54,893 nt of DNA from positions 1 to 54,893 of IMG/VR virus record IMGVR_UViG_3300022602_000126; one strand, written 5' to 3'. Source of the DNA: a virus. Its lineage: Duplodnaviria > Caudoviricetes. The notes under the pieces are model-generated. The model was not told the origin of the DNA. It did not search any database and saw only the letters and a program-made list of their open reading frames with translations. Both the position numbers and the translations under genes were made by a program. Shown in pieces: positions 3,866 through 47,179 of the stretch (positions are counted from its first letter, which is position 1; each line of letters opens with the position of its first letter).

Positions 3866-3866
3866 A

Positions 3867-24530: not shown

Positions 24531-25187
24531 ATGGTATTTACCAAACAAAATCCACCAAGTGGATATTATGTATATGCTTATATAAGAGCAAGTGATTTAA
24601 CTCCATATTATATTGGTAAGGGCAAAGAAAATCGTGCTTACAATAAACACGATAACATACCTATTCCAAAAAATCAAGATAGAATTATAATTGTTGAGCA
24701 TAATTTAACTGAAATCGGTGCATTGGCAATAGAACGCCGATTGATTGCTTGGTATGGTCGCAAAGATAATAATACTGGTATTTTAAGAAATAAAACTGAT
24801 GGTGGTGATGGAATATCTGGAAGAGTATATTCTGTTGAAGACTTATCAAAAATGAGTGCGAGTATGAAGGGGAAAAATAAAAACCCAAAAACAGAAGAAC
24901 ACAAAAATAAAATTTCTTCTGCAATGACTGGACGAAAATTTAGTGAAGAACATAAAGAAAAATTGAAAAAAACTAGGTCTCTTGAAACTCGCAAAAAAAT
25001 GTCAGAATCCGCCAAGAAAAGAAAACATTCCCCAGAAAGCATAGAAAAAATTAGAATGAGTTCTAGTGGAAGAACTCATTCCAAAGAAACAAAGGAAAAA
25101 ATTGGATTGGCAAGTCGTTTAAGAGGAAAAAAATCTACTTATATTTCACCGACATTGAATCGCCTGTATCTGGATCAAACATTGTAA
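24531..25187 (+). CDS. GIY-YIG homing endonuclease with NUMOD3 repeats
   Basis: YYVYAY..PYYIGKG, N.TDGGDG, H(S/T)EE.K.KIS repeats. Confidence 0.88.
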
Positions 25188-29930: not shown

Positions 29931-30289
29931 TATGCCACGCTCCAATCATAATCATCAATGGTCATCACGCTTTCAAGCCCATCATATTCATCAATACGAT
30001 ACTGCGTACCAGGTTCCAATTCACGGATAGCCAAGCGAGCAAATTCACCGTTTGCCGCCTCGCCTAATTCTTCTACAACCTGCACAAGTAGCGGATCAGT
30101 GCGTTCAATATCACGACTAGAAAAATAATGGTCATCGTCTTCAATGCCATCCTTATAATAGTGACTATCCCATCTATGATCGCCCTCAACATACAGAATG
30201 TTAAGATTGGCAAGTTCGCCATACCGCATGGTAGCCTCATGGCTCAATCCAAATCCACCGTGACACGCATTATATACAATTTTGGTCAT
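29930..30289 (-). CDS. conserved phage hypothetical protein
   Basis: KIVYN.C.GGFGLS...R.DP.LVQVVEELG...YDG.E pattern. Confidence 0.8.
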   Translation of the reverse strand: MTKIVYNACHGGFGLSHEATMRYGELANLNILYVEGDHRWDSHYYKDGIEDDDHYFSSRDIERTDPLLVQVVEELGEAANGEFARLAIRELEPGTQYRIDEYDGLESVMTIDDYDWSVA

Positions 30290-30573
30290 ATGCCTACTGC
30301 CTCTGCTCTTTTACGATCTATACTCATAATAACACTGCTGTTAATATCTGTCAAGTCTTTATTTGGCGGAAAGAAGATGTAAGCATTGGGGTCATTTACC
30401 TTTGTGCCGTTTAGCCGTATGCCACCACTTTCAATTAAGCGGTTAAACTCACTCTTACTCGTGACAAGTGCAGCATCAATGCCAACCTGTGCAAGATTAA
30501 TGTGACGAGCATATTCTGCCAGTGAAATATATTTCCAATCAGTCAAGATTTCTTCAATCGCTATTTTATCCAT
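30286..30573 (-). CDS. stand-alone S4-like RNA-binding domain protein (TyrRS C-terminal-like)
   Basis: LVTSKSEFNRLIESGGIRLNGTKV.D matches S4 consensus. Confidence 0.65.
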   Translation of the reverse strand: MDKIAIEEILTDWKYISLAEYARHINLAQVGIDAALVTSKSEFNRLIESGGIRLNGTKVNDPNAYIFFPPNKDLTDINSSVIMSIDRKRAEAVGI

Positions 30574-30704
30574 TACCAAATCCACCATGCTAATACTAAA
30601 AACCCAACCCAATCGCCATTATGACTAACGCCAGAAGAATAAGCACCGCCAGCAATGAGAGCGATTACCACAATAGTTTTAAGTATATCATAATTGCTGT
30701 TCAT
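30573..30704 (-). CDS. small membrane protein (43 aa)
   Basis: MNSNYDILKTIVVIALIAGG...WWIW; TAATG coupling to next gene. Confidence 0.55.
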   Translation of the reverse strand: MNSNYDILKTIVVIALIAGGAYSSGVSHNGDWVGFLVLAWWIW

Positions 30705-31521
30705 CGGTGAGTCCTTCAAATAAATCCATTGGATTTGCTAAATTCTTCAAATTTCTTTCTTTTAAAATCCAAGCATTGGCAAGATTATAATATTCTTGCA
30801 TCATTTCAATTCCAATGTATTTTCTGTTTAATTTCTCAGCAGCAATGCAGGTTGAACCACTGCCCATACAGTTATCAAGAACTATGTCATTTTCATTTGT
30901 ATAAGTTTTAATAAAATATTCAATAAGAGCGGTTGGTTTTTGAGTAGGATGAAATTTGTTAGGATCATCATTATTAATTACTGGAAACTGTAACACATCA
31001 CGTGGATAGCGAACAGTTGAACCACCAGGATTGCCGCTATGAGTTGCAACATGGTTATAATTTCTTTTAACTTCTGGTTTTGGTATATTGCTTTTTGGAG
31101 TTACAGAGTTCATTGGCTTATGACCATCGGTCATTTGTGGATTATAGGTTGGCAAATTCTTATAAAAAATCAACACATGCTCATGTGCCTTCATCGGCAT
31201 CTTTTTGGAGTTTAAGTGTCCTGTTGCTTTATTCTTTTCCCAAATCCACTCATACCTAAACAAGTTAAGATTAGACATTGCTAACATTTTATCAAACGGT
31301 GCTTGTGCAGTAAGAACAATAGCACCATTTTGTTTTACAATGCGATTATAACATGCCCATAATTCATCAAATGGAATTAATACATCCCATTGATTTTGTG
31401 TAGTGCCATATGGCAGATCACAAAATACCATATCAATGCTTTGTTCGGGAAATGTTTTCATAATATCTAAACAATTTCCCAAATATGTAACATTAGTTTC
31501 TATTTTCAATTTTAAATCCAT
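30688..31521 (-). CDS. DNA N6-adenine/N4-cytosine methyltransferase (beta class)
   Basis: DLPY catalytic motif, HPTQKP, VLDNCMGSGST. Confidence 0.92.
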   Translation of the reverse strand: MDLKLKIETNVTYLGNCLDIMKTFPEQSIDMVFCDLPYGTTQNQWDVLIPFDELWACYNRIVKQNGAIVLTAQAPFDKMLAMSNLNLFRYEWIWEKNKATGHLNSKKMPMKAHEHVLIFYKNLPTYNPQMTDGHKPMNSVTPKSNIPKPEVKRNYNHVATHSGNPGGSTVRYPRDVLQFPVINNDDPNKFHPTQKPTALIEYFIKTYTNENDIVLDNCMGSGSTCIAAEKLNRKYIGIEMMQEYYNLANAWILKERNLKNLANPMDLFEGLTDEQQL

Positions 31522-32122
31522 TGATATTTTCTGGTATGATTTCTGCAAACTCTGCGGATGTTTTATAATCATATATATTTTTTATGTCATAGTAAATATT
31601 AATTTCAAAGACTTTATTTGGATAATATGATTCCATGATTGGTTTAATATTAGTTTTTTCTTTGCTTTTTGCTACATTATCATAACCAGTAACAATGCCT
31701 TGATTATTAAACGTCGGCAAAATTCTAGGATAGATGTTTATAAAGAAAACTTGTTCTGGATTAATAATATCAGAATCCATAATTCTATGCATTTCACCAA
31801 TGCTCGTATTGGCATAATTCTTAGAATTTTTTGCATAAGATGAATTAATACTTTTTGCAAGAATAAAAACTTTTGGAACAGAATCTTTAAATCCAACAAC
31901 ATCAATATCAAATGTTCCACCAAAACCATCTTTTGGTAGACGCCATTCATGAACCCAATCATATTTTTCATATTCTGGGTATGAATGAATAAGTTGACGA
32001 ATAATAGCATGGTGCATCTTATGCGTCCTATGAGATGATCTCACGTTTGCAAAAGAATGTTTTAAAAATTCTTTAAATTCTTCACAGATATCTTCTAATT
32101 CTACATTCATTTCATTGTCCAT
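31493..32122 (-). CDS. putative PD-(D/E)XK nuclease (possible restriction endonuclease)
   Basis: HE.....FDIDVVG.......ILAK pattern; overlaps MTase gene; AT-rich. Confidence 0.45.
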   Translation of the reverse strand: MDNEMNVELEDICEEFKEFLKHSFANVRSSHRTHKMHHAIIRQLIHSYPEYEKYDWVHEWRLPKDGFGGTFDIDVVGFKDSVPKVFILAKSINSSYAKNSKNYANTSIGEMHRIMDSDIINPEQVFFINIYPRILPTFNNQGIVTGYDNVAKSKEKTNIKPIMESYYPNKVFEINIYYDIKNIYDYKTSAEFAEIIPENINGFKIENRN

Positions 32123-32357
32123 TTCTCATTGTTGCTAACACATATTCTTCACTGGTCATATTAGCATAGGCTTTAACATAACCTAATCTAATCGAATCTT
32201 TGATTATCGCAAGTTCAATATCAGGAATTTCTCCGTGAGGATCGCTTATTCTAATTTCAGCACGAGGCACAAGACGCAAACCATCAATAAACCTAAACTG
32301 TGGATCGTGGGGACCGACACTTACGGTATCGGATTTTTCAGCAGTGATCATTTGCAA
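32112..32357 (-). CDS. hypothetical protein
   Basis: 81-aa ORF. Confidence 0.65.
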   Translation of the reverse strand: MQMITAEKSDTVSVGPHDPQFRFIDGLRLVPRAEIRISDPHGEIPDIELAIIKDSIRLGYVKAYANMTSEEYVLATMRNGQ

Positions 32358-32509
32358 ATCTCGTTGATTTCTGCAACTGTGCGTGTGGTCTTGGCATATT
32401 CTACTTTACAACTGCTCTTCTGCCAACTATCAACACCTGCACCAACCATAATAGCAGACATAACAACCGCCATCATAATAAAATACCATTTATATTCTGC
32501 TTCAAACAT
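32348..32509 (-). CDS. small membrane protein (53 aa)
   Basis: Read manually, MFEAEYKWYFIMMAVV...; GAGGAG RBS. Confidence 0.55.
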   Translation of the reverse strand: MFEAEYKWYFIMMAVVMSAIMVGAGVDSWQKSSCKVEYAKTTRTVAEINEICK

Positions 32510-32789
32510 TTATATTCTCCTCACTGCATTTTGGACACAACAGAGTGCGTGTCATTTCTTGTATCTCTGGACTTTCAAATCTTGCAAACCCATCCCATAG
32601 CGGTTCTATCTTGTAATAAGAATAGTTCCAACCACGCAACTGTTCTTTACGTTTCAAACTGCGATTGTCAATATTATCAGCCAAATTATCTTTATCGTTT
32701 TCCTCGTGTGCGTGTTCTTCCGTATGATTGCATGCATCACAGGTAAGCGTAATATGATATGTTTTAACTGTGAAGGTATCTAACCCCAT
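32502..32789 (-). CDS. hypothetical protein with two CxxC motifs
   Basis: CDAC...CPKC; start coupled to upstream TGA. Confidence 0.6.
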   Translation of the reverse strand: MGLDTFTVKTYHITLTCDACNHTEEHAHEENDKDNLADNIDNRSLKRKEQLRGWNYSYYKIEPLWDGFARFESPEIQEMTRTLLCPKCSEENINV

Positions 32790-32968
32790 CAGTAAGTCTC
32801 TACTTCTTTCAACAACCGCTGACAGCGTTTGCGCCAATCATCACGCTGCTGTTGTGCCTTTTCATAACTCAATTCATACGAGTCATTGGCAATGAACCAT
32901 ACCAAATCACGATACTTTTCTAACTTGGCAATCTGTTCACGGATTGCTGCAATTTCTGCTTCCATCAT
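32789..32968 (-). CDS. hypothetical protein (59 aa)
   Basis: Read manually, MMEAEIAAIREQIAKLEKYRD...; GGAG RBS. Confidence 0.6.
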   Translation of the reverse strand: MMEAEIAAIREQIAKLEKYRDLVWFIANDSYELSYEKAQQQRDDWRKRCQRLLKEVETY

Positions 32969-33195
32969 TCAACTCCAAAGTGTTTCTTTATATCATCACG
33001 AATCTGTTGAGCAGTGCCATCAATCGTAGCATGCGCATCACACCATTCCATACATTCACGCACAATCAACTGCGCAAACTTCTCAACATCTTCTTGTTCG
33101 GCATTGCCATTAATGAAGTAATGCCTTGGTGTTTCATGATCTACATAGTTCAATAGTCCCGCATCAAGTGCGAGTTCTTTAATTCGCTCGTTCAT
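32965..33195 (-). CDS. conserved phage hypothetical protein
   Basis: MNERIKELA...EKFAQLIVREC...IKKHFGVE pattern. Confidence 0.75.
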   Translation of the reverse strand: MNERIKELALDAGLLNYVDHETPRHYFINGNAEQEDVEKFAQLIVRECMEWCDAHATIDGTAQQIRDDIKKHFGVE

Positions 33196-33496
33196 CATCC
33201 CAATTTTCCCAACACTCATACTCATCGTCCCAATGACGATCATCATATAATTTAATACTAACATAGAACCACAGAATTGTCAAGTCAAATTGTGGACCAG
33301 CATGATCACGACCAAACCACCAAGTGTCAAGATTGATACTAAAAAACTCATCCAAACCGCTCCAAAATGAAACTTGTATTTCAAAATTTTTATGTTTGGT
33401 AATGCGGTAATTTCGTAAAAAAACATTACGAGTTGATACCCAAGACTTGGCAAATGGATTGCCTATCCGTAAATGAAATCCTATCATTCTACCCAC
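33179..33496 (-). CDS. hypothetical protein
   Basis: 105-aa ORF. Confidence 0.65.
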   Translation of the reverse strand: MGRMIGFHLRIGNPFAKSWVSTRNVFLRNYRITKHKNFEIQVSFWSGLDEFFSINLDTWWFGRDHAGPQFDLTILWFYVSIKLYDDRHWDDEYECWENWDDERAN

Positions 33497-33672
33497 CTCA
33501 TTAAAAATAATACATACGCTGACTTATCAAAGAAATCAATGGTTTCCCAACCACGATAACCAAATGAATTTTTTGGTAAGGTATCCGTGCACCATTTTAG
33601 TATCTCTTGGAACGAAGCGATACCATTATACTGCCATTGATACCATTGCAAATTATCTCTTATCATCCCCAC
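33484..33672 (-). CDS. hypothetical protein
   Basis: C-terminal F.MRW motif shared with neighbours. Confidence 0.6.
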   Translation of the reverse strand: MGMIRDNLQWYQWQYNGIASFQEILKWCTDTLPKNSFGYRGWETIDFFDKSAYVLFLMRWVE

Positions 33673-34076
33673 CTCATTACAAAGTGTGTTAAATCTTCTG
33701 CTCGCTTGAACTTGAAAACAAACACCGTTGGCTCTAAACTTATAAGTGTAATATTATTTGCTACAATATCGTTGGCTTCTGACCATGATGTTTTTTCAGG
33801 ATTGTCAATGTTTTCTGCAACCCATTGTCGTATTTCAAGATATAATTCTTTAATAGTAGATACATGAGCACCTTCAACAATTGTAACATTAGCCTGATGT
33901 TTATACCTGTAATTGACATATTTGGCAAGCGCCCACGATTTGCAGTCTTTTAATTTGCTACGCCAGTTATTCCTATGAATATCAAATCCTACTGCAATCA
34001 TGGCACATACACCGTAGCATACAACCATGATTGCATCAGTTGCGACAACCCAATCTGGAATTGTGATGACTAACAT
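33663..34076 (-). CDS. hypothetical protein
   Basis: 137 aa, C-terminal F.MRW. Confidence 0.65.
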   Translation of the reverse strand: MLVITIPDWVVATDAIMVVCYGVCAMIAVGFDIHRNNWRSKLKDCKSWALAKYVNYRYKHQANVTIVEGAHVSTIKELYLEIRQWVAENIDNPEKTSWSEANDIVANNITLISLEPTVFVFKFKRAEDLTHFVMRWG

Positions 34077-34678
34077 TAGGCATCGCCCTCAAAGTGATAA
34101 GTCCAACGATGTGAACCCCAAAGATGACGAACTTCGTCAATTTTAGTTTGGGTTCCAGTGCTACGCTTGATGATATCTAATACCATAGTTCTCGTATCAC
34201 GATGATCAAATTTGCCGAAAACAATGTTGCCAGCAAAAGCATCCTGACCTTTAATTGTAGGAAGCCATTCCAAAGCAAAACGCTTGCGGTCAAGTCCGTG
34301 AGCGATTACAGTATCAAAGTAGCGGTCATATGACTGGACTACTTGGTTCAACCCGATAAAGAAATCAGTCTCAAACTCTTCCACCCGCTTGCGGTCGTCT
34401 GGAAGCATAAATGCCTTTACATCGTCCATTTGTTCATTTACTAACAAAGAGATAATGTTCTTCTCTAACGAGATAGCATCCTTGGTCTTGTGAATACGCA
34501 GATACTCTTCGGCTTTAATCTTTACACGATACCCATCATTCCATGCAATTACAAAACCTTCAACCCCTTGCAAATCACGCACATAGTCCATGAACGCCTG
34601 TGGATTCTTTACAGGTTCATGCACATCCACGACTGGAATGTCAAATAATTTAATTTGTTCTGCTAATTGTACCTGCAT
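34076..34678 (-). CDS. RNA ligase (T4 Rnl1-like), C-terminal half
   Basis: Motif IV EGFV, motif V VKIK...Y...H; own AGGAG RBS and promoter. Confidence 0.85.
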   Translation of the reverse strand: MQVQLAEQIKLFDIPVVDVHEPVKNPQAFMDYVRDLQGVEGFVIAWNDGYRVKIKAEEYLRIHKTKDAISLEKNIISLLVNEQMDDVKAFMLPDDRKRVEEFETDFFIGLNQVVQSYDRYFDTVIAHGLDRKRFALEWLPTIKGQDAFAGNIVFGKFDHRDTRTMVLDIIKRSTGTQTKIDEVRHLWGSHRWTYHFEGDA

Positions 34679-34699
34679 TTCATCTCTCCTATTACAATC

Positions 34700-34727
34700 A
34701 TAATAACACAAATAGTATGGATGTCAA
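34700..34727 (-). promoter_or_regulatory. sigma70-like promoter for ligase C-half
   Basis: TTGACA-N16-TATTAT, back-to-back with leader cassette E. Confidence 0.65.
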
Positions 34728-34729
34728 GC

Positions 34730-34796
34730 ATAAATAATAGTGTAGGCCACGGATTCGCACTCCTGCCTACTCTATCGCCTGGGAGGGCAACAGCAA
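34730..34796 (+). promoter_or_regulatory. Endonuclease leader cassette copy E
   Basis: ATAAATAATAGT-GTAGGC-CAC-GGA TTCGCAC TCC-T-GCCTAC-TCTA-TCGCC TGGGAG GGCAA-CAGCAA-ATG. Confidence 0.85.
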
Positions 34797-35480
34797 ATGT
34801 ATTTACGAAACAAATATACCGCTTGGTATTATAATATTATAAATTACGCAAAATCAAGAACTTTATCACCTGATGTTTATACAGAAAAACATCATATTAT
34901 ACCAAAAAGTTTAGGCGGTGATAATAGCAAAGATAATCTTGTAAAACTTACCGCAAAAGAACATTTTATATGCCATTTATTATTACCAAAAATGGTTGAA
35001 ATTAATGTTCAGAAAAAAATGATATTTGCATTATGGCGAATGTCATTTGGGAAAGATAGATATAAACCTTGTTCAAGATTATATGAAAATATAAGAAAAT
35101 TAGCAGCGGCAAATCAAACAGGAACAAACCATTGGTCAAAACAACCAGGAAAAATACATAATACCAAAATTAATCATCCAAGAGGCATGTTAGATAAAAA
35201 ACATACGGCAGAAACTAAACAAAGAATGGTTTCTGCGCAAACAGGCGAAAAAAATCATTTCAAAAATAAAAAACATACGGATGATACAAAAGAACTTATT
35301 AGAGTTAAGCGAAAATCAAAAATTTGGATTACAAACGGCGAAATAGATTTAATGTTGGATAAAACTCTCCCTATACCAAATGGATTTAGTAGAGGAAGAG
35401 TCAATGGTTTGCGAGGATTATACATCAACAATATCTATAAACTCACCAGTTTCCATATAACGGGCAGCAAGCAAAGTTAA
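34797..35480 (+). CDS. HNH homing endonuclease (Mob-like) with NUMOD3 repeats
   Basis: EKHHIIPKSLGG.NS.DNLV.LTAKEHFICHLLL; KKHT.ETK repeats. Confidence 0.9.
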   Translation: MYLRNKYTAWYYNIINYAKSRTLSPDVYTEKHHIIPKSLGGDNSKDNLVKLTAKEHFICHLLLPKMVEINVQKKMIFALWRMSFGKDRYKPCSRLYENIRKLAAANQTGTNHWSKQPGKIHNTKINHPRGMLDKKHTAETKQRMVSAQTGEKNHFKNKKHTDDTKELIRVKRKSKIWITNGEIDLMLDKTLPIPNGFSRGRVNGLRGLYINNIYKLTSFHITGSKQS

Positions 35481-36020
35481 GTTATCTGTTGGATAATCAA
35501 TAACTATTCTTTGTTGGCGACTTGTCCATTCAAACATAGGAGTAATTCCGTTGGCAATACACCAACGAGAAAATTCCATATACTTTGGGTTGCGAGCCAC
35601 AAACTCTTCGGCTTGCATGGATACTTCTGTTATTCCTGCCTTTGTTCCAAACCGAATATTACCAGAGCCGTATCCAACTTCAAATGGCGAAACCATGCTA
35701 CCATCAAGTTTAGTATAAACAGTGTGTGGCAAAGTAAAGTCAAGTTTATGAAGTTGCGTTTCATCTTTTTCTTGAATATTAAAAAATTTATGAAACGGGC
35801 GGCGTAGTATCTTACCAGTAGTGCTGCAAAATATCATCCCCCTACATTCTCTGCGGATGGCATCATTGACCGTTTCTACTGGCGGAAAAGTATCTGCAAG
35901 ATTTACATGGTAATTGACTACCATGTATTCTCCACGATCATTGATTGCAAATTCATCACGACCCGCAATAGCAGGACGAACCTGATCAAGGTGGGTGATA
36001 CGGGGAAATTCGTAGCGCAT
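35418..36020 (-). CDS. RNA ligase (T4 Rnl1-like), N-terminal half
   Basis: RECRG, RPFHKFFN, motif I KLDGS, T.MFEW...QRIV..Y; ends ETGEFIDIVDV*. Confidence 0.88.
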   Translation of the reverse strand: MRYEFPRITHLDQVRPAIAGRDEFAINDRGEYMVVNYHVNLADTFPPVETVNDAIRRECRGMIFCSTTGKILRRPFHKFFNIQEKDETQLHKLDFTLPHTVYTKLDGSMVSPFEVGYGSGNIRFGTKAGITEVSMQAEEFVARNPKYMEFSRWCIANGITPMFEWTSRQQRIVIDYPTDNLTLLAARYMETGEFIDIVDV

Positions 36021-36081
36021 TGGTCCTACTCCTGTTTATAATTTAATATAACACAGATTTAGAGGATGTCAAGCACTATTT

Positions 36082-36546
36082 TTAATAATCTGCCAACTCT
36101 TGGTAGGCGTCATTTACCTGATTTGAGGTAATTCCAGCATGTTTATAGCCATTTATGATGGTGGTAACATACGATTGCGATGGCATACGGTCTCGCGCCG
36201 ACCATTGACGGGTAGATGGGGTCATATAATATACCCATGCCTCATACTTTTGACCGTCCACATATATTGGGACAATTTTCCTACCATACATGTTTGGATA
36301 GCTTTCAATATGGTCAAGATAGCGCAGCATTTGTTCATCTGGAAGTTCCCATAGGACACCATCCACATGCGATCCAGCAGTTTCTACAACATCAGCAAAC
36401 TTATAAAATTCAAACTTATAATTTTGTAGTTGTCCACGACCAATGAACTTAGCATCTTGCATAATGCCAGGATCGGTTAGCATACCATATGCAAAATAAT
36501 AAATTGGCTGACCGCCTGCTTCTAGGATAATTTCATTCATTTTCAT
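36082..36546 (-). CDS. gamma-glutamylcyclotransferase (AIG2-like) protein
   Basis: YFAYG, GVLW, LD..E.YP..Y.R, PS..Y. Confidence 0.8.
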   Translation of the reverse strand: MKMNEIILEAGGQPIYYFAYGMLTDPGIMQDAKFIGRGQLQNYKFEFYKFADVVETAGSHVDGVLWELPDEQMLRYLDHIESYPNMYGRKIVPIYVDGQKYEAWVYYMTPSTRQWSARDRMPSQSYVTTIINGYKHAGITSNQVNDAYQELADY

Positions 36547-36552
36547 GCTCAG

Positions 36553-37233
36553 TTATTTATTGGCTATATTGCTTAAGTCTGCAAGTGATGTTATGGTGCT
36601 ATCTCGCTTGCACAATTCAATATACTCATTCTTATCACCCTTCCACTCTACACCATTCCACCATTCAAATCCATTTAAATGTGCTTTATAGATTGAACTT
36701 TTTTCATAACCACTACCAATATAAAGATGTTCCAAGCCAAGTGATTGCGCATATTGAACTTCATGATTCAGCATCTCTGCGCCAAATTCCCATTGGACAT
36801 GTATTACATATGCATTGAACTGACTTTCTAATCCGCCATTATATTTTACAAACTTGGTAAATCCACGCAGAGCATCTGGAAATGTGCAACCACGCCAATA
36901 ATATTCCATCCATGCATCGCGATCACTCGCAACAAACGGATCATATAGTGGTTCAAATTTTTTATCATAAAGATATCTTTCCCACACTTTTTTATATTCT
37001 TCACTTGGCGTATCTACAAACCGAACATCATAATTGTAAACTGTTTGATAATACTTCCAATCTTTTAAAACAATGCGAGTGCTGCGTGATTGATACCATC
37101 CACCATTATACCATAGCCAACCATTCTCCAATGCTTCACGCTCTTCATGCGGTTCGCATTGTAGATTAGCATGATATAATTGCAGATTATGTTTTTCTTG
37201 AGCACCATAATAGTGGCTATAAGTAATCTTCAT
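36553..37233 (-). CDS. putative aminoacyl-tRNA-protein transferase (ATE1/Bpt-like)
   Basis: L..GW, R; C-terminal E..YA..LGL.HLYIG......YK..F resembles ATE_C. Confidence 0.5.
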   Translation of the reverse strand: MKITYSHYYGAQEKHNLQLYHANLQCEPHEEREALENGWLWYNGGWYQSRSTRIVLKDWKYYQTVYNYDVRFVDTPSEEYKKVWERYLYDKKFEPLYDPFVASDRDAWMEYYWRGCTFPDALRGFTKFVKYNGGLESQFNAYVIHVQWEFGAEMLNHEVQYAQSLGLEHLYIGSGYEKSSIYKAHLNGFEWWNGVEWKGDKNEYIELCKRDSTITSLADLSNIANK

Positions 37234-37737
37234 ATGAATAATTATATAGATTTAGATACCGCAAAGCAAGATTTAAGTGATTGGATTATCAACTTCCTTG
37301 ATGTTCCACAAAAGAATTTAAATGATATTGCGCCATGTCCATTTGCCAAAGCTGCATTGATTAATAATAAAATTCGTTTTGTTGTTGGTAGCGATAGCAT
37401 AGTGCAAGATATGCTTATGCTCAATGCGCAATGGGATAGCGAATATGAAGGCGTTGTGTTAATCTATCCAAACGATATTAATGCAGAAAATTTTAGTGAC
37501 AGCGTTGAATATGTAAACATGATGTTCTATCGTCATAGTGGATTGCTTGCGCTAGAAGATCATCCACAGATTTCAGAAACCATTGCTGGCCTGCGTTTTA
37601 ACAATCACAAATATGCAATCGTTATCGTTCAACGAGCAGAGAAATTACGCAAGGCAAGCGAGATGTTAGCCAAGCGTGGATATTATAAACATTGGACACA
37701 ACAGGATTTAGATTCTGTTGTTGGATGGAGATGGTAA
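37213..37737 (+). CDS. hypothetical protein (DUF1415-like CPFA motif)
   Basis: W......PCPFA, HP motif. Confidence 0.6.
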   Translation: MAISNLHMNNYIDLDTAKQDLSDWIINFLDVPQKNLNDIAPCPFAKAALINNKIRFVVGSDSIVQDMLMLNAQWDSEYEGVVLIYPNDINAENFSDSVEYVNMMFYRHSGLLALEDHPQISETIAGLRFNNHKYAIVIVQRAEKLRKASEMLAKRGYYKHWTQQDLDSVVGWRW

Positions 37738-38844
37738 TTGTATAGCGTTTACCAACATTGGGATCGACTTAAAACTTGTGTAGTTGGCAAAAGTTATCCA
37801 CCGCAATTTTATAGCTTTATTAAGAATCCAAAGCTGCGTAATTTATTTGAAAAGATTGCCATTGAAACCGAAGAAGATTTAGATAGCTTAGATAAGTTAT
37901 TACAGAAATTTAATGTAAAAACTATTAGACCATTTGTTCCTCAAACAAATGCTATCGAACATATTAATAGCGGTGAGCGTATTCCTGCGCCAATCAGTAT
38001 GATACCACGCGATCAAATGATTATGATTGGCAATACTTTTTTATTATTTCCTTATGATATAATATATTCAAAAGCAAGTGGGCAACGCCATTCAAAAACA
38101 CTTGCCAATCAACATCAAGTGCTAGATGAAACTAAAAAATTAGATTGGTGGAAACCTATAAAAGATGATGTGGTTAATGCTAACAACATTGTAATTGAAA
38201 ATTCATGGGATGAATTATTAAAAGTTATTCCAGCAAATGGCATAACTCGTTGCGGCAAAGATTTATATTTTGGAATAGGTGGTAATCCGCTATTAAAAGT
38301 TGGATTAAAGAAATTACAGAAAAAATATTTTAGTGATTATAGATGCCATGAAGTTCCTACTCATGGACACACTGATGGAGTTTATATGCCAGTTGTACCT
38401 GGCTTAATTGTTAGCACTGTTCATGCAGATGAAATTTCATATGATAAAGAATTTCCCGATTGGGAAGTAGTCAATATCACTGGCGAAGGATGGGGCAAAA
38501 CAGAATCATGGTCACAACTAAAAGCTAAAAACAATGGCGCATGGTGGATTAAAGATCATGAGAATGATGATGAATTAATCGAGTTTGTAGAAACTTGGTT
38601 GCGTGATTGGGTTGGATATGTTGAAGAAAGTGTATTTGATGTAAACATGCTAATGATTGATGAAAAGAATGTTATTTGCAATGGATATAACAAAACAGTG
38701 TTTGATGCATTTGAGCGATATGGAATAACTCCGCATATATTAAATTTAAGACATCGTTATTTCTGGGATGGCGGTATTCATTGTTCTACGCTAGATTTAG
38801 ATCGCGAAGGAACTATGCAAGATTATTTTCCAAAGCGAGGATGA
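37738..38844 (+). CDS. amidinotransferase (glycine/inosamine amidinotransferase family)
   Basis: WDRLK.CVVG, PRD, H.DG, GGIHC.T.D..R catalytic Cys motif. Confidence 0.85.
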   Translation: MYSVYQHWDRLKTCVVGKSYPPQFYSFIKNPKLRNLFEKIAIETEEDLDSLDKLLQKFNVKTIRPFVPQTNAIEHINSGERIPAPISMIPRDQMIMIGNTFLLFPYDIIYSKASGQRHSKTLANQHQVLDETKKLDWWKPIKDDVVNANNIVIENSWDELLKVIPANGITRCGKDLYFGIGGNPLLKVGLKKLQKKYFSDYRCHEVPTHGHTDGVYMPVVPGLIVSTVHADEISYDKEFPDWEVVNITGEGWGKTESWSQLKAKNNGAWWIKDHENDDELIEFVETWLRDWVGYVEESVFDVNMLMIDEKNVICNGYNKTVFDAFERYGITPHILNLRHRYFWDGGIHCSTLDLDREGTMQDYFPKRG

Positions 38845-38845
38845 T

Positions 38846-38922
38846 TGGCGATCTCGGCAGGACTCTAACCTGCAACCTAGTGGGTAGAAGCCACTTGCTC
38901 TATACAGTTAAGCTACGAGACC
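38846..38922 (-). tRNA. tRNA-Arg(UCU)
   Basis: Cloverleaf; anticodon arm AGTGG-CTTCTAC-CCACT; CCA encoded; atypical T-loop TTAGAGT. Confidence 0.88.
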
Positions 38923-38923
38923 G

Positions 38924-39304
38924 TTACAAACCAAATATATCATGCAATTCTTGCAACGTCAACTCATTTGCATAATATGTTTTATCACACTTATATAACA
39001 CGCTATCATGTAAACGTTTGGCAATGACATCATTTATAACACGAATACTCATATCGTGCGTAATTTTATCAACAGCATTATGATGACGTTGATCTAACAC
39101 AAATGCAAGTGGCTTGCTAAATCTATAAATCTTGCTTAGATTTGAAGCACGGCTGATAACATAGTTTGTATATCCAACCTGAGATAACCCGTGTTTCCAC
39201 GGGGTATCTTCAATGAGTTCACTTTCTCGTATGATTTTAATCTCTGGAATTTCTTCCAAGATTTTTACACATTCTGGTGTTTCAACGAGAAATAATACTT
39301 TCAT
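38924..39304 (-). CDS. hypothetical protein
   Basis: Start MKVLFL after AGGTG; upstream part of the computed ORF is the tRNA-Ser gene. Confidence 0.65.
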   Translation of the reverse strand: MKVLFLVETPECVKILEEIPEIKIIRESELIEDTPWKHGLSQVGYTNYVISRASNLSKIYRFSKPLAFVLDQRHHNAVDKITHDMSIRVINDVIAKRLHDSVLYKCDKTYYANELTLQELHDIFGL

Positions 39305-39322
39305 ATAACACCTAAAAAATAA

Positions 39323-39407
<85 letters not shown>

Positions 39408-39412
<5 letters not shown>

Positions 39413-39836
39413 ATATGATTGACTCATCTAGTAATTCACTATACAACGGTGCTCTTGATTTGTCAACATTTATTGTATTCTTGCCTACTTCTTTTCTAAT
39501 TCTAAAAGTCTTTACATTTCTAATTTGTTCTTTATTAAAATAACAAATAGAATCTACATCTGGTATATAAACAGCCCATCCATCAATTGCAGATAAATCA
39601 ATTGGAATTTTTTTACCATTAACAACAGTGCTAAATGGTATTTCAACAGAATTTATTCTACTATCAACTTGTCTATATTTAACTTGTAATTTTTTAACAT
39701 TATAGTTTTTATCCATAACAATTAAATCAACCGCACTATAATCGTGTAATGGAGTAAAACACTCATAACCTTTTTTAGTTAAGTCTCTTATAACTTCAAT
39801 TAGTCCTATATTACCTTTTTCGTTTACGTTCATCAT
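39408..39836 (-). CDS. PD-(D/E)XK homing-type endonuclease
   Basis: KG.IG...V...L...GY..F.P.......DLIV.......LQVKY pattern; between tRNA genes. Confidence 0.8.
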
Positions 39837-39885
39837 AGTCTCCTACATTATTTATATTTATGCAGAAGTTGACTCAACTTGTAGA

Positions 39886-39961
39886 TGGTAGGCGATGACG
39901 GTCTCGAACCGCCGACATTTTGCGTGTAAAGCAAACACTCTACCAACTGAGTTAATCGCCC
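39886..39961 (-). tRNA. tRNA-Val(UAC)
   Basis: Anticodon arm TTTGC-TTTACAC-GCAAA, GGTTCGAG T-arm, A73-CCA. Confidence 0.93.
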
Positions 39962-39988
39962 ATTTCTTATTCTCTTAATATACTTAGT

Positions 39989-40576
39989 TTATTCACTTTT
40001 GTCAAGAATTATTTTATATAAAGTTTCAGCCATTAATTTGTGTCCAACTTCATCTGGATGCCCATCTGGAAATTGATTAGGATAAATTATATCACACATA
40101 TTTTGCAACCCATTCCAAAGATACCGATTATTTTTTATACTATTATAATAATTTAATGGCAATGCATCAAATAAAAAATATTCTATGCTTTGTAAATCTA
40201 ACCACGCCATAAACATTTTGATTTGTTTTATATTACGTTCAAGATAATAATTATCGTCATAAAAATCTTGCCAAAACATATTTTCAAATTTACTTTGCCC
40301 ACGGCGATTTAGAATAGTTGTAAATCGTTTGTTAGTTTTTACATCCATAAATTCTATACGACTATGGCGTGTTAATCCGCAAATTACAAGACTATTGGTT
40401 AAATCACAGTCCATAATAGAATTAATAATATATTCATTGCCCATACCTTCACTACCAAGATTAATCGTAGGCAAATTTAACTTTTTACCTAACACATATG
40501 GCCAAGCAAGTTGCGGATTATCTAGACCATATCCACTTGTAAAACTATCGCCACTACAAATTATTTTTGAAAACAT
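39989..40576 (-). CDS. SGNH/GDSL-like hydrolase-fold protein
   Basis: GDSFT.G, N.G..G.GN, DGHP...GH. Confidence 0.7.
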   Translation of the reverse strand: MFSKIICSGDSFTSGYGLDNPQLAWPYVLGKKLNLPTINLGSEGMGNEYIINSIMDCDLTNSLVICGLTRHSRIEFMDVKTNKRFTTILNRRGQSKFENMFWQDFYDDNYYLERNIKQIKMFMAWLDLQSIEYFLFDALPLNYYNSIKNNRYLWNGLQNMCDIIYPNQFPDGHPDEVGHKLMAETLYKIILDKSE

Positions 40577-41361
40577 TCGGTGACCTTTGGATATATTAAA
40601 TCTAACCAATCACTATGCGCCTCTTGAACAGGATGATTTCCGCATTGAGGATAATCTTTTGCCCAAGTATGAAATCCATTATCTTTATGCCAATTATTCC
40701 AATTAATATTTTGCCATATCCCATTAGATAAAACTTCGGGCGGTTGTTTATCATATAATTCATGCGTGGCACAACAAAAGAAATATGGAATATTTTTACT
40801 TTCTAACAATAACTGCAACAATAATATTTCTTTGGCAGTATTAATATGATGACTTATTGAATCGCCTGTTATTTTATAATATTGATCCGCAGCACTTGTT
40901 ATTCCAATTTCAGTTAGTTTATCATGTTGATCACTGAAAAATTTATGTTGGTTATCATCTATGCCATTTGGAAAAAATGAAAGTTTTTCTTCTAATGATA
41001 ATCCATGCCATGCATTAAAATTGATATAATAATCATCTATACCAAACTGTGCTTCTAATGATTTGTCATGCACGATAGTATTATAAGGATGCATATTGCG
41101 CAATCTTATTTCACTGCGATGAGTATATGTCCACATAACTGCTACATATAATTCTTTATTTTGATTTTGATTAATAGCATCTATAACACGACGAGCGATT
41201 GAATTATTAGCGCATCCTGGTTTTGCAACACAAAGATATTCATAGTTTAGTTGTTTAGCTAATAAAGCAGACCATGTAAATTGACTAGGCGATGTTAATG
41301 TTTCATCGCCTAGTTCACTGCCCCAAGTAAAACTATCGCCACCTGCGATTAGTAATGGCAT
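40561..41361 (-). CDS. SGNH/GDSL-like hydrolase-fold protein
   Basis: GDSFTWG, PG..N..I.R, WT...R.E, NHP...AH. Confidence 0.7.
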   Translation of the reverse strand: MPLLIAGGDSFTWGSELGDETLTSPSQFTWSALLAKQLNYEYLCVAKPGCANNSIARRVIDAINQNQNKELYVAVMWTYTHRSEIRLRNMHPYNTIVHDKSLEAQFGIDDYYINFNAWHGLSLEEKLSFFPNGIDDNQHKFFSDQHDKLTEIGITSAADQYYKITGDSISHHINTAKEILLLQLLLESKNIPYFFCCATHELYDKQPPEVLSNGIWQNINWNNWHKDNGFHTWAKDYPQCGNHPVQEAHSDWLDLIYPKVTECFQK

Positions 41362-41975
41362 TAAGCCCCCAATACAGACTTGGCTTTTTCCCAATGTGCG
41401 GTGCGTTCTTCAAGACCAATTGTGCCGCCATTGATGATCTTAGTGCAGCGTTCAATATCACCGCTGTCAGCTACTTCGTTGCAACCATTTTGTTGCCAGA
41501 ACCAACCAGCACTGCGAGCAGCGCCTTCTGGGGTTGCAAGATAATCACTGTCACTAACAAGGTCTTTGTTAAGTGCTTGTCCACATGCTTCATAGTTGCT
41601 TTTGCCAGTCAACTGAACAAGTCCGCGACCACGAAAACGATAACCGTCGCCGCTTGCTTCGTCGCCATTGCCCATGCGTGATGCATAAACACGGTTAGCA
41701 ATCTTCTCTGGCTGCTTTGCAAAGTCTTCTGGATTTACATCCTTAAAATACTTTGGAAATACCTTAGAAAGAGTTTCAGCTTTATAGTTAAGGTTCTCAC
41801 TAACAGCACTGAACATGCCGCTTTCGTGTCCTACCTGAGCAAGAAACATTGCTTCACGAGCAAGAGAATTTACTTCAAATTCATTCATTGCTTCATTAAG
41901 TGCATCGCTAAACTTTTCAAGGTTTTCTTCTTTAGCTTGTGGGAAAATTTCTTTAAGTTGGTCTAAACTTGCCAT
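41361..41975 (-). CDS. glycoside hydrolase family 19 endolysin
   Basis: FLAQ.GHESG, ENLNY, FRGRGLVQLTGK.NY, T..INGG..GL..R. Confidence 0.93.
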   Translation of the reverse strand: MASLDQLKEIFPQAKEENLEKFSDALNEAMNEFEVNSLAREAMFLAQVGHESGMFSAVSENLNYKAETLSKVFPKYFKDVNPEDFAKQPEKIANRVYASRMGNGDEASGDGYRFRGRGLVQLTGKSNYEACGQALNKDLVSDSDYLATPEGAARSAGWFWQQNGCNEVADSGDIERCTKIINGGTIGLEERTAHWEKAKSVLGA

Positions 41976-42040
41976 TTTACGGCTCCTTTTGTTTTTTATA
42001 CTACTATTTACCATTCCGATTATGACACCTAAATAACTAC

Positions 42041-42925
42041 ATGTGTGTAATTGTCGCCAAATATTTTGAAGGAACTGGTTGGGTTGGGGTTAAAAACCGT
42101 GACCGTAACTATGTGCCTGATTTAAGTTTTGTTAAGAAAAAAACCGCTAATACAGAAATTTTATATTTTCACGATGACATAACAAAATATGTTGAAGGCA
42201 TGAATGATAGTGGTGTATGCGTGTTAAGTGCTTCACTTATGGTGCTAGATGATGAAAAAGAAATCACTGTTCGCACCAAGACACCAAGTAAAGATGGCGT
42301 GAAAATTAAGAAAGCACTTAAACTTACTGATATCAAAGCAGTAGCAATGAGTCTGATTAAGCAGAAACTGCCTGGTTGCACACTTATATTCAACCAAGAA
42401 GAATGCTATCTACTTGAAGGTTCATGGGCACCAGGTGGCTATGAAGATAAAGATTACAAGTATAAGATTGAAAAGATTGAACACAACGAAACTGTTGCCA
42501 GAACTAATCATGGTGTATGGTTAAAGTGGGCTGGCTATCAATATGGAGCAGATGATAACGAAAGCATGAGTGCTATTTCTAGTCGCAGTCGTTTGCTAAT
42601 TGCTCAACATGTTGTTGATACTGCCAAAACTCCTGCTCAGTTAATTGATTTATTAACCAAGAAGTATGTGGATAATTGGCAATTGAACGCTATGCGCTTG
42701 GCAGATGAAAAGAAGATGATGCGCACCACTGCACAACTTATGCTAGTGCCAAAAGACCTAACAATGTTTGTGCGTCCTATTCAAAGCAATATTAAGTTTA
42801 ACTTCTGGAAACTTAATGGCGCAAAGGATAACAAGATGTGGGTTGAATTGCTAACCAATCGTGTGTTACGCACTGGTGAAGATGATCCTGCTATTCCAAC
42901 TAATCTTTCACATATTGAAGATTAA
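42041..42925 (+). CDS. Ntn-hydrolase superfamily protein
   Basis: N-terminal Cys2, KNRDR, EGMN..GV, RTNH, SS..R. Confidence 0.7.
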   Translation: MCVIVAKYFEGTGWVGVKNRDRNYVPDLSFVKKKTANTEILYFHDDITKYVEGMNDSGVCVLSASLMVLDDEKEITVRTKTPSKDGVKIKKALKLTDIKAVAMSLIKQKLPGCTLIFNQEECYLLEGSWAPGGYEDKDYKYKIEKIEHNETVARTNHGVWLKWAGYQYGADDNESMSAISSRSRLLIAQHVVDTAKTPAQLIDLLTKKYVDNWQLNAMRLADEKKMMRTTAQLMLVPKDLTMFVRPIQSNIKFNFWKLNGAKDNKMWVELLTNRVLRTGEDDPAIPTNLSHIED

Positions 42926-43173
42926 ACTGGATGATGGGCTAATCCCCAATCATTGTATTTCCAACGCAATCCAAATAGCACAGCATCTTCACTATTCGTG
43001 AATATCCATTGACTTGTCCACCCATGCTGCTCATTAGCATAAGGCCATTGATTTACAGTATAATCAATGCCGTTTTCCAAGCACCAAATAACCATCTGAT
43101 CAATCCAAAACTGTGCTGCAAATGCGGCATGAGCAGATGGCAGTGTAATATCAATTTTATAATTTTCAGTCAT
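42922..43173 (-). CDS. hypothetical protein
   Basis: 83 aa, F.LRW motif. Confidence 0.6.
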   Translation of the reverse strand: MTENYKIDITLPSAHAAFAAQFWIDQMVIWCLENGIDYTVNQWPYANEQHGWTSQWIFTNSEDAVLFGLRWKYNDWGLAHHPV

Positions 43174-43189
43174 GATTACTTTTTAAGTT

Positions 43190-43266
43190 TGGTGCGCACG
43201 GTGGGATTCGAACCCACAACACTGGCATTTTAAGTGCCATAACTCTGCCAATTGGTTCACGTGCGC
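43190..43266 (-). tRNA. tRNA-Leu(UAA), short variable loop
   Basis: Acceptor GCGCACG/CGTGCGC, anticodon arm TGGCA-CTTAAAA-TGCCA, GGTTCGAATCC, A73-CCA. Confidence 0.9.
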
Positions 43267-43274
43267 ATTATTCT

Positions 43275-43562
43275 TTACTTTACACTAATACTATGTATGC
43301 TGTCAAGCCTAAAAGAACGCCATTCACCAATATCAGTAACAAAAACTGCGAGTGAAGTATCGCTAACCTTGCGTTCCTTCTTTTCTTCACCTTCTACTAC
43401 AAGGGCAGGTGGTAACATAAGGGGATTGAGAGTACAAGGCATTGTGCGTAGATCACCGTTGACCTTAGTAAAGGTTACTTCGCATACGCTTTCACGCAGC
43501 ATATCACGCAGCATATCAATGCTTGGCTGAACGTCGTTATTAAACTCAATATATGCTGTCAT
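43275..43562 (-). CDS. WYL_2/DUF2693-like Sm/SH3-fold protein
   Basis: VTFTKVNG..R.M.CTL...WRSFRLD. Confidence 0.75.
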   Translation of the reverse strand: MTAYIEFNNDVQPSIDMLRDMLRESVCEVTFTKVNGDLRTMPCTLNPLMLPPALVVEGEEKKERKVSDTSLAVFVTDIGEWRSFRLDSIHSISVK

Positions 43563-43588
43563 CTATTGTCCTTTAAAATGTTTGGTTT

Positions 43589-43664
43589 TGGTAGGCGTGG
43601 CCCGACTCGAACGGACACTGGTGCTCTTATGAGGAGCAGGTACTGACCCTTATACGACACGCCC
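43589..43664 (-). tRNA. tRNA with CAU anticodon (Ile2 or elongator Met)
   Basis: Anticodon arm TGCTC-CTCATAA-GAGCA; acceptor GGGCGTG/CACGCCT; lacks initiator GGG/CCC anticodon stem. Confidence 0.85.
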
Positions 43665-44910: not shown

Positions 44911-45381
44911 TTAGGGATTGTCAAGCATTATTATTTCATCAAATCCCTCAGAAAGTTGAGGCATTTCAAGATGTTGAATCATGCTTGCCATAACATCCTT
45001 TGGGATGCTCTTGCCTACACGAGAATCAAGACGGCGTTGCAATTCGGCCGCATCAGGAGTAGGAAAGAATACACATACCTTTACCCATTCCTTTGGCAAC
45101 CGTCCCAACTTGATCTTACGACCCTTGGCAGTGGTGTTAGTCTGATCCCAGATAAGCGTCTTGTCCAGATTAATAGCAGTCTGTACCTGAGAGTCACAGA
45201 ACTTCTGTGCATAGCCAATTGCCTGACTAAAAATCTCGTTATAGGTCTTGCCAGCCTTTGCTGCTACCGTATCAATATACGCATCGCTAGATGCAATGAT
45301 AGCATCTTCAAACTTCTGGTTAGCAACCCAAGTTGACTTGCCCGCACCTGGTACGCCTACTAACATATAACACTTCGTCAT
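44911..45381 (-). CDS. polynucleotide kinase-like P-loop protein (AAA_33)
   Basis: LVGVPGAGKSTW, SSD, WDQTN....R, R...R. Confidence 0.82.
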   Translation of the reverse strand: MTKCYMLVGVPGAGKSTWVANQKFEDAIIASSDAYIDTVAAKAGKTYNEIFSQAIGYAQKFCDSQVQTAINLDKTLIWDQTNTTAKGRKIKLGRLPKEWVKVCVFFPTPDAAELQRRLDSRVGKSIPKDVMASMIQHLEMPQLSEGFDEIIMLDNP

Positions 45382-46129: not shown

Positions 46130-46765
46130 ATGGTATTTACACCAACGAATCCACCAAGTGGATATTATGTATATGCTTATATAAGAGCATCAAACAACAC
46201 TCCATATTATATTGGTAAAGGCAAAGCCGATAGAGCATGGTCTAAAAACCATAACATAAAAGTTCCAAAAAATAAAAATAAAATTATGATACTTGAACAC
46301 AATTTAACAGAAATTGGTGCGTTAGCAATCGAGCGTCGTATGATTGCTTGGTATGGTCGTCTTGATTTAGGAACTGGAATTTTAAGAAATATGACTGACG
46401 GCGGTGATGGAACAAGTGGTCGAATTTTTTCTCAAAATTCAAAAGAAAAGATATCAAAAACTTTGATGGGTCATAAAAGAACAAAAGAAAGTATAGAAAA
46501 AACAAGATTAGGAAATATGGGTTGTAAAAGAACCGAAAAGTTTAAGAAAAATTTATCTGAAAAAAGAACAGGAAAAAATAATCCATTTTATGGCAAAACA
46601 CATACAGATGAAGTTCGGCTGAAAATATCTAAATCCCATACAGGAAAAACATACAATCAGCCGAAATTTTATTGCGAACATTGTGGCATACTAACAATAA
46701 AATCAAATATTGTTAGATGGCATGGCGATAAATGTAAATCAAAATTTACCGTCAGCAACTTGTAG
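46130..46765 (+). CDS. GIY-YIG homing endonuclease with NUMOD3 repeats and C-terminal Cys/His motif
   Basis: YYVYAY..PYYIGKG, NPFYGKTHT, CEHC...RWH.DKC. Confidence 0.88.
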   Translation: MVFTPTNPPSGYYVYAYIRASNNTPYYIGKGKADRAWSKNHNIKVPKNKNKIMILEHNLTEIGALAIERRMIAWYGRLDLGTGILRNMTDGGDGTSGRIFSQNSKEKISKTLMGHKRTKESIEKTRLGNMGCKRTEKFKKNLSEKRTGKNNPFYGKTHTDEVRLKISKSHTGKTYNQPKFYCEHCGILTIKSNIVRWHGDKCKSKFTVSNL

Positions 46766-47179
46766 AACACGAACGCCTTCTGCTCTGATCGCCTGCACCA
46801 CTTGCTCTCTATCGTCGAACCATAAAAACGGTGGTCCCCAATCCTTACGGATTTGTTCAAGCAATTCTACCTTGACGATGCTATCCTTCCTGTAATCTTT
46901 TTCCGCTCGCATGTATAACGCATTGAAGTCAATACCATGCTGATGCAACCATGTTTCAGTAACTTTCCGTGTTTCCTCACCACGCCCACTGCACAAGATG
47001 ATACGGTCTCCACGAGCAAAGAACATACTCAACAGTTCAACAATATCCGCATGCACCGTATCATTAGCCATACCAGCGTTCCAAGCAGCCCAGTTCTTTG
47101 GCTTGCTTGCAACCCAATGCTTGCGATGTTCAGTGTTGGCAATCGTGCCATCAATGTCGCAAATTATAATCTTGTTCAT
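46739..47179 (-). CDS. HAD-family 3'-phosphatase (T4 PNKP phosphatase-domain-like)
   Basis: DIDGT, SGR, LYMR...D.RKD..VK, FDDR..VV. Confidence 0.88.
   Translation of the reverse strand: MNKIIICDIDGTIANTEHRKHWVASKPKNWAAWNAGMANDTVHADIVELLSMFFARGDRIILCSGRGEETRKVTETWLHQHGIDFNALYMRAEKDYRKDSIVKVELLEQIRKDWGPPFLWFDDREQVVQAIRAEGVRVLQVADGKF

Follow-up and report, generated by a model that had tools for sequence, protein, structure and literature searches.

An RNA ligase 1 gene in two pieces around an antisense homing endonuclease cassette in a lake phage: a probable two-chain enzyme

The divided ligase gene and its inserted cassette

The window analyzed in this work, i.e., the whole stretch of 54,893 nucleotides (nt) at positions 1 to 54,893 of the IMG/VR virus record IMGVR_UViG_3300022602_000126, derives from a large lake phage and contains an RNA ligase gene of the rnlA type (Rnl1) that is broken into two open reading frames (ORFs) by an HNH endonuclease gene on the opposite strand. 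The N-terminal half of the ligase (N-half; 35418-36020, minus strand, 200 amino acids (aa)) contains the sequences RECRG and HKFFN, motif I (KLDGS) and FEW, and it ends in ETGEFIDIVDV followed by a stop codon. The C-terminal half (C-half; from an ATG at 34678 to 34076, minus strand, 200 aa) contains motif IV (EGFV), motif V (KIK) and the Rnl1 C-terminal domain; its frame is open further in the ORF listing, to a TTG at 34711 that sits within the spacer of the promoter described below. The names of these motifs (viz. motif I, IV, V, FEW etc.) are those which we take to apply from the literature on T4 Rnl1. In place of a single polypeptide, two ORFs about 757 nt apart are encoded, and they carry the motifs and the N-half terminus that a preliminary description of this DNA had ascribed to them.

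Profile and structure comparisons support the reading of the two ORFs as collinear parts of one Rnl1 family protein, and not of two ligase families. The N-half matches the Pfam family RNA_lig_T4_1 (PF09511) over profile positions 1-153 of 227 (E 1.5e-22; 81 bits, cut-off 28.3) and the C-half matches T4_Rnl1_C (PF20819; E 7.4e-8; 33.2 bits, cut-off 27). The two halves align, respectively, to positions 30-194 and 208-364 of the 377 positions of phrog_562 and to residues 52-195 and 217-352 of the T4 Rnl1 chain 2c5u_A, and their similarity to T4 Rnl1 in phmmer is low (E about 1e-9 per half). Because the Pfam, PHROG and structure alignments are collinear, the N-half and the C-half are consecutive pieces of one Rnl1-type ligase, and the possibility, raised in the preliminary description, that they derive from different ligase families is not borne out. 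Residues K104, D106, G107, S108 and E164 of the N-half are invariant in 29 sequences, and residues E40, G41, K53 and K55 of the C-half, which align with IEGYV and FKIK of T4, are invariant in 27 sequences, split forms being included in both sets. The break lies between FEW and EGFV and the catalytic residues would therefore be divided across two chains.

The limits of the inserted homing-endonuclease cassette were determined from a junction alignment of 13 uninterrupted homologues and the halves of four split loci. In this alignment, the cassette comprises about 757 nt (34673-35429) and includes, at its two ends, the ATG-CAG that opens the C-half and the VDV-stop that closes the N-half. The native N-half sequence ends ...GEFIDI, to which the insert adds VDV and a stop codon (35418-35429), and the native C-half sequence resumes as VQLAEQ... 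at VQLAEQIKLFDIPVV, preceded by ATG-CAG (MQ) from the insert. The insertion point is located exactly between these two native sequences, at about residue 195 of T4 Rnl1 and between the FEW motif and motif IV. Aligned in this manner with uninterrupted homologues, as the preliminary description had suggested, the halves join without the loss of any native ligase residue. The G+C content is 0.265-0.34 across 34700-35499 versus 0.37-0.455 in the ligase parts.

Neither an intron nor an intein is present at the split ligase locus. Rfam gave no intron match in the window at gathering score, nor at E values up to 10 in 34000-36100, and only 118 nt of the insert (34679-34796) are non-coding; a group I or group II intron carrying an endonuclease gene was rejected on these grounds, in keeping with the earlier remark that the halves are intact and leave no space for an intron core. 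A fractured gene with split inteins was also rejected, as the Pfam scan contained no intein domain and the insert contributes merely 3 + 2 residues (VDV and MQ), which leaves no room for intein halves. The locus has the form of genes in pieces, in which same-strand, collinear halves flank an endonuclease gene, nothing is missing relative to uninterrupted homologues and each half possesses its own stop or start signals.

The available evidence supports the view that the insert is an HNH gene of the Mob-like type, free-standing and encoded on the strand opposite to the ligase. This HNH-NUMOD3 homing endonuclease gene (34797-35480, plus strand, 227 aa) is antisense to the ligase and, as the preliminary description had noted, it lies between the halves and shares 63 nt (35418-35480) with the 3′ end of the N-half. 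Its product matches the Pfam domains NUMOD3 (47.8 bits) and HNH (22.4 bits, cut-off 21.4) and phrog_655 "homing endonuclease" (E 6.6e-42), and it is 33-41% identical to the products of Sinorhizobium phage genes annotated as "MobE homing endonuclease." The HNH frame extends into native ligase DNA, to which its final 17 or so codons are antisense, and closes at the first stop codon that it meets. DNA sequencing runs show a common G>A variant at 34807, with additional depth from other HNH copies.

Both halves are preceded by predicted expression signals. For the C-half, these signals (34686-34727, minus strand) consist of TTGACA (34727-34722), a 16-nt spacer, TGtTATTAT (TATTAT at 34705-34700) and the ribosome site AGGAG (34690-34686), located 7 nt before the ATG; the TTGACA-N16-TATTAT promoter and AGGAG had been proposed earlier for this half, and the promoter is found to match at 11 of 12 positions and to have a TG extension. 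For the N-half, a predicted sigma-70-like promoter (36045-36072, minus strand; TTGACA-N16-TATATT with a TG extension, 11/12 matches) is accompanied by an AGGAG ribosome site at 36029-36033, 8 nt before the start. The two promoters are among only four 11/12 matches in 30000-40000, and the exact 9-mer GCTTGACAT has two occurrences in the 54.9-kb window, one before each half. A TTGACA-N16-TG-extended -10 also precedes the C-halves of two related split loci (L005 and L006, described below), where the module has the order HNH start, HNH ribosome site, hairpin, TATTTAT(G/A)C..TTGACAT, 16-nt spacer, TG-extended -10, ribosome site and C-half ATG. These comparisons support the presence in the cassette of a strong sigma-70-like promoter and a ribosome site for the C-half that are conserved in the homologous cassettes of two distant lineages. 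A scan for terminators between the HNH gene and the C-half found none in L005, L006 or the further split locus L056.

The leader of the HNH gene contains a hairpin (34742-34770, plus strand), which is followed on the HNH strand by a second small hairpin that covers the HNH ribosome site (GCCUGGGAGGGC). The pairing of the leader hairpin is kept with different letters in three cassettes (viz. the stems GTAGGC/GCCTAC in the window, read on the ligase strand, GTGGTC/GACCAC in L005 at about 5268-5298, and GCAGTT/AACTGC in L006 at about 5396-5425), with 6 of 9 pairs changed on both sides, a covariation that involves three sequences only. The hairpin folds in all three cassettes with an energy that is not significant (z -1.1 to -1.6), and the same region folded on the ligase strand gives a z of -2.2. 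The leader hairpins could stabilize the mRNA, mask the HNH ribosome site or insulate against antisense read-through. Just upstream of the leader hairpin, CATAAATA (34729-34736, plus strand) is a possible T4-late-type promoter for the HNH gene; its assignment stays conditional because TATAAATA, which is found in L006 and L056, is not enriched in the window (4 occurrences versus 7.8 expected).

Recurrence of the split and mobility of the cassette

No close DNA relative was found among named phages by near-identity search, and a distant search matched the HNH motif region only. The best named protein relative is the uninterrupted ligase of the Caulobacter phage Cr30 (398 aa, 48% identity), and uninterrupted metagenomic loci show 60-65% identity to the window ligase. 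Scans of IMG/VR and metagenome contigs, judged by tblastn and frame checks (and by the junction alignment in the case of L083), have identified 86 related loci. The ligase is open through the junction in 73 of these loci; 7 are split at the window site, and the other 6 end before the C-part and are not judgeable. The seven split loci represent five distinct contigs, viz. L003 (= L009), L010, L005 (= L022), L006 and L056. Two of these, L003 and L010, belong to sister phages whose flanks are 88-94% identical to the window. The ligases of L005 and L006 are more distant (59% and 57% identity to the window in the N-half, 37% and 40% in the C-half), and in these loci the HNH gene is likewise antisense and the intergenic module is homologous to that of the window, the HNH proteins of the three cassettes (window, L005 and L006) being 25-42% identical. 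The same Rnl1 site in L056 is occupied by another endonuclease type, a 198 aa protein of the Pfam family HNH_3 (3693-4289, minus strand), whose gene is antisense to the ligase, overlaps the end of the N-half and has TATAAATA about 25 nt before its start.

Proteins with the form of separate halves are also found in database searches. When a library of 1.84 billion representatives was searched with the N-half, the 150 best matches included five of 201-211 aa in length, which terminate 3-7 residues after GEY; the two best matches overall are among these five. A length-restricted search with the C-half produced 28 matches, 21 of which are stand-alone proteins of 185-220 aa, and the stand-alone C-halves have a Met and 8-22 residues before an (F/L)xIPVV motif. 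In the tree of the N-half, the window group, L005 and L006 form a cluster (Shimodaira-Hasegawa-like approximate likelihood ratio test (SH-aLRT) 82, not starred), and L056 is located elsewhere beside an unsplit sister. The C-half tree places the window among unsplit sequences and L005/L006 with the unsplit L030; with the stand-alone proteins included, it contains a 100*-supported clade of 21 rows with deep branches, consisting of 19 split sequences and the unsplit L057 and L066. A single origin of the split was rejected, as the C-half tree requires 7 changes, at least 5 of which are forced by starred branches, and L056 carries a different, HNH_3-type gene. What stands out from these comparisons is a recurrent insertion hot-spot between motifs III and IV of Rnl1.

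The cassette of the window also bears marks of recent movement. A tract at 34405-36004 is 99-100% identical to L003 (1,590 of 1,600 nt, i.e., 10 differences), and the corresponding identity to L010 ends near 34505; just beyond the shared tract identity drops to 55-86%, and the flanks are mostly at 55-95%. The tract is centered on the HNH gene and spans the whole N-half. Because this HNH-centered tract has unlike end points in L003 and L010, homing with co-conversion of the flanks is its probable cause, and it is read as a homing footprint. The few differences from L003 and L010 within the tract cluster at 34805-35004, toward the 5′ end of the HNH gene, where they number 2-5 per 100 nt.

The identical tract and its differing ends, together with an unsplit ligase within the split lineage, are the marks of a mobile element of the Mob-type HNH class. 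The unsplit ligase is found in L057 (2851-4092, identical in L066), which encodes an uninterrupted protein of 413 aa with a junction of the unsplit type (EGWVIRFDDGHMVK) and a distal part like that of the split P0170 and P0173. It follows from this mixed make-up that alleles with and without the cassette coexist in one lineage, L057 representing either a cassette-free allele of the split lineage or a case of cassette loss. Four DNA runs contained no empty-site contig that joins the two sides of the HNH gene at a likeness of at least 85%, a result from contigs, which cannot show absence. The HNH cassette would spread by homing and carry the adjacent ligase sequence along with it.

A probable two-chain ligase and alternative explanations

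We propose that a Mob-like HNH cassette was inserted backwards into an Rnl1 gene between the FEW motif and motif IV, where it would close the N-half with VDV-stop and, with an ATG-CAG, a promoter and a ribosome site that it carries itself, restart the C-half. The ligase would then be made as two 200-aa chains, separately transcribed and translated, which would reassemble non-covalently to give the normal Rnl1 fold; in this fold, the N-half strand with motif I would pair with the motif IV/V strands of the C-half and so rebuild the adenylyltransferase site. On gene sequences and a structure model, we consider it probable that the separately expressed halves form a working two-chain Rnl1 ligase. 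This proposal builds upon the anatomy of the locus, the absence of an intron or intein, the repeated occurrence of the split at one site, the footprint of homing and the conservation of both halves.

Substitution patterns indicate purifying selection on the halves. Among the window, L003 and L010, the diverged part of the C-half has a ratio of non-synonymous to synonymous substitution rates (dN/dS) of 0.12-0.20. For the split pair L005/L006, the proportion of synonymous differences (pS) is 0.78, i.e., saturated, versus a proportion of non-synonymous differences (pN) of only 0.145 in the N-half and 0.333 in the C-half. A structure model of the two chains, which had also been suggested at the outset, gave an interface score of 0.92, compared to 0.00 for the best of 3 controls; the mark set for the interface is reached by 58 of 80 solved complexes and by 2 of 110 mismatched pairs. 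The model runs agree in at least 91% of contacts with a partner predicted local distance difference test score (pLDDT) of at least 86, and the halves are modeled as one fold in which residues 99-106 of the N-half pair with residues 38-55 of the C-half. In all four of the four DNA runs, each from a different study, the junctions of the C-half, HNH gene and N-half are spanned by contigs. Additionally, because separate polynucleotide kinase and phosphatase domain genes lie in the same window, about 10 kb from the ligase, an RNA-repair partner set is present.

A number of points weigh against a two-chain enzyme. As T4 Rnl1 has been solved as a single chain, the interface score may derive from the familiarity of the model with that fold. 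Entry of the cassette into the window lineage may be recent, as the homing footprint implies, in which case the low dN/dS of the distal C-half could in part date from uninterrupted genes. The insert contributes tails of only 3 and 2 residues, compared to the longer ones of Aeh1 NrdA, L056 is without a good sigma-70-like promoter before its C-half, and no RNA run was found among the 24 listed sequencing runs. Lastly, T4 does not need rnlA in the usual laboratory hosts, and a broken ligase could therefore persist for some time.

Several of these observations would fit with a gene inactivated by the endonuclease insertion, the two ORFs being young, intact remnants of a dispensable ligase with no working enzyme: the tract in common with L003 and L010 shows recent movement and hence little time for decay, the insert-derived tails are very short, RNA runs are lacking among those listed and the T4 gene is non-essential. 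However, we regard inactivation as unlikely, since the promoter, ribosome site and start of the C-half are kept in three cassettes whose HNH proteins have diverged to only 25-42% identity, pN remains low in L005/L006 where synonymous sites are saturated, and the split arrangement is present in DNA runs dated 2017 to 2025. It is also opposed by the retention of full length and catalytic residues in about 20 mutually diverged stand-alone C-halves and 5 N-halves, the stand-alone status of these P-numbered proteins being judged by length and start and not by genomic context, a further point on the unfavorable side for two chains.

Two other explanations concern the fate of the halves. It is very unlikely that only one half matters, e.g., in a non-catalytic tail-fiber attachment role as for T4 gp63, with the other half carried along. 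T4 Rnl1 (gp63) does have a second, ligase-independent activity, and the PHROG family bears the name "RNA ligase and tail fiber protein attachment catalyst," but split forms show no variation in the catalytic residues of either half, both halves are constrained in L005/L006, the kinase and phosphatase domain genes that are the usual RNA-repair partner are found in the same window, and none of the 5 distinct split contigs has an allele with one decayed half. A rejoining of the halves by RNA splicing, split-intein protein trans-splicing or ribosomal bypassing is scarcely credible, given the negative intron search, the 118 nt of non-coding sequence, the lack of space for intein halves, a C-half with its own promoter, ribosome site and ATG, and a gap of about 757 nt that far exceeds known bypassing. 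What can be said for it is that group I introns often harbor phage endonuclease genes. Fractured genes in which split inteins are combined with a free-standing endonuclease are also known from the available text of Dassa et al. (2009; PMC2677866).

Beyond the two-chain ligase itself, it is a tentative suggestion, which we hold to be less likely than not to be correct, that the mobile unit constitutes a self-compensating package, composed of a two-way control module and of co-converted flanks that encode a split-adapted ligase interface. The control module may comprise, on one strand, the signals that launch the C-half (an early-type promoter, a ribosome site and a start codon) and, on the other, a late-type promoter and conserved leader hairpins for the HNH gene. 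Residues that are almost specific to split forms occur at C-half positions 20, 26, 45, 46, 50 and 51 and at N-half positions 101 and 102. Between motifs IV and V, A45, W46, Y50 and R51 are present in 85%, 85%, 73% and 92%, respectively, of 26 split C-halves versus 0-1% of 68 unsplit sequences (1% for R51 and 0% for A45-W46), and V101-Y102, next to motif I, are present in 64% of 11 split N-halves versus 1-7% of 74 unsplit sequences. These residues fall in strands that touch in the interface model, and their pattern is confounded by shared ancestry and co-conversion. If the suggestion is true, homing would deliver a ligase allele already adapted to two pieces.

A number of other features of the window may be recorded here. 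Directly upstream of the ligase is a gamma-glutamyl cyclotransferase-like (GGACT/AIG2) gene (36082-36546, minus strand). Three more NUMOD3-bearing endonuclease-like ORFs (phrog_314/phrog_15526; 6173-6703, 24531-25187 and 46130-46765, all on the plus strand) occur amid minus-strand genes, and the phage therefore carries at least 4 backwards endonuclease genes in 55 kb. Polynucleotide kinase-phosphatase is represented by separate minus-strand genes for the phosphatase domain (46739-47179; phrog_505 positions 161-295) and the kinase (44911-45381; positions 1-142), in an order that is the reverse of the T4 domain order and with a 158-aa ORF between them; the backwards endonuclease ORF at 46130-46765 shares 27 nt with the 3′ end of the phosphatase gene. 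Five tRNA genes (viz. Arg-tct, Ser-gct, Val-tac, Leu-taa and Met-cat) are located at 38846-43664 on the minus strand (five by ARAGORN, four by Rfam at gathering score).

Significance and comparison with known split genes

To our knowledge, Aeh1 NrdA is the only endonuclease-split enzyme shown to work as two chains, and the Rnl1 of the window, if the two-chain reading is true, would be the second. Rnl1 is easy to test, as it is a small, monomeric protein with a simple self-adenylylation assay and solved structures, and the locus offers natural split and unsplit alleles side by side. A selfish element would here lessen the burden on its host, as it supplies the severed gene half with expression signals, and a naturally split Rnl1 could interest enzyme engineers who use split-ligase tools. 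Literature searches found no paper on an endonuclease-split Rnl1, and a review of T4 mobile elements is without the terms "RNA ligase" and "rnlA." T4 Rnl1 itself (gp63; 2c5u, 5tt6 and 9do4) has the same domain order and motifs as the window ligase, but it is a single chain of 374 aa.

The window locus is well supported as a further gene in pieces made by a free-standing homing endonuclease, which is a known trick. The arrangement nrdA-a / mobE / nrdA-b of Aeh1 was reportedly described by Friedrich et al. in 2007 as "genes-in-pieces." According to the available text of Crona et al. (2011; PMC3045599), the splitting of Aeh1 nrdA by mobE places active-site residues on two polypeptides, and the insert-derived tails are essential. 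The two systems are alike in that a Mob-type HNH gene breaks an enzyme gene between secondary-structure elements of its catalytic domain, the first half gains a new C-terminal tail and the second half a new N-terminal tail, and the insert has a lower G+C content than its host gene (PMC3045599, available text). They differ in that the target is Rnl1 and not NrdA, the endonuclease gene is antisense, a full sigma-70-like promoter is predicted for the second half, and the tails are of 3 and 2 residues; two-chain function has been demonstrated for Aeh1 and is predicted for the Rnl1 of the window. The split of Rnl1 also recurs at one site in several lineages, unlike the insertion in Aeh1 nrdA, which the same available text gives as unique, none of 1200 other nrdA sequences being split (PMC3045599).

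Acinetobacter phage 133 (NC_015250.1) also possesses an Rnl1-family enzyme in two annotated genes around one inserted gene (rnlA-A / Acj133p227 / rnlA-B, with the product name "split RnlA RNA ligase 1 and tail fiber attachment catalyst"), for which a literature search found no paper. Unlike the window locus, this gene is cut before motif I (rnlA-A is 112 aa in length and covers Pfam positions 1-32 only, and rnlA-B covers 48-223), and the gene inserted into it shares its strand and has overlaps with each of the halves. In the fractured genes of Dassa et al. (2009), split-intein halves trans-splice the protein and the endonucleases are GIY-YIG or Vsr-like, according to the available text (PMC2677866), in which the term RNA ligase has 0 occurrences. 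The window locus resembles these fractured genes in its layout, in the arrival of gene-control elements with the endonuclease gene and in its leader hairpins and TATAAATA elements, but it is without split inteins and its endonuclease is of the HNH type (PMC2677866, available text). Relative to these known systems, the points that stand out for the window Rnl1 are the recurrence of the split at the same site, the backwards cassette with a predicted promoter for the cut-off half and the clear footprint of homing.

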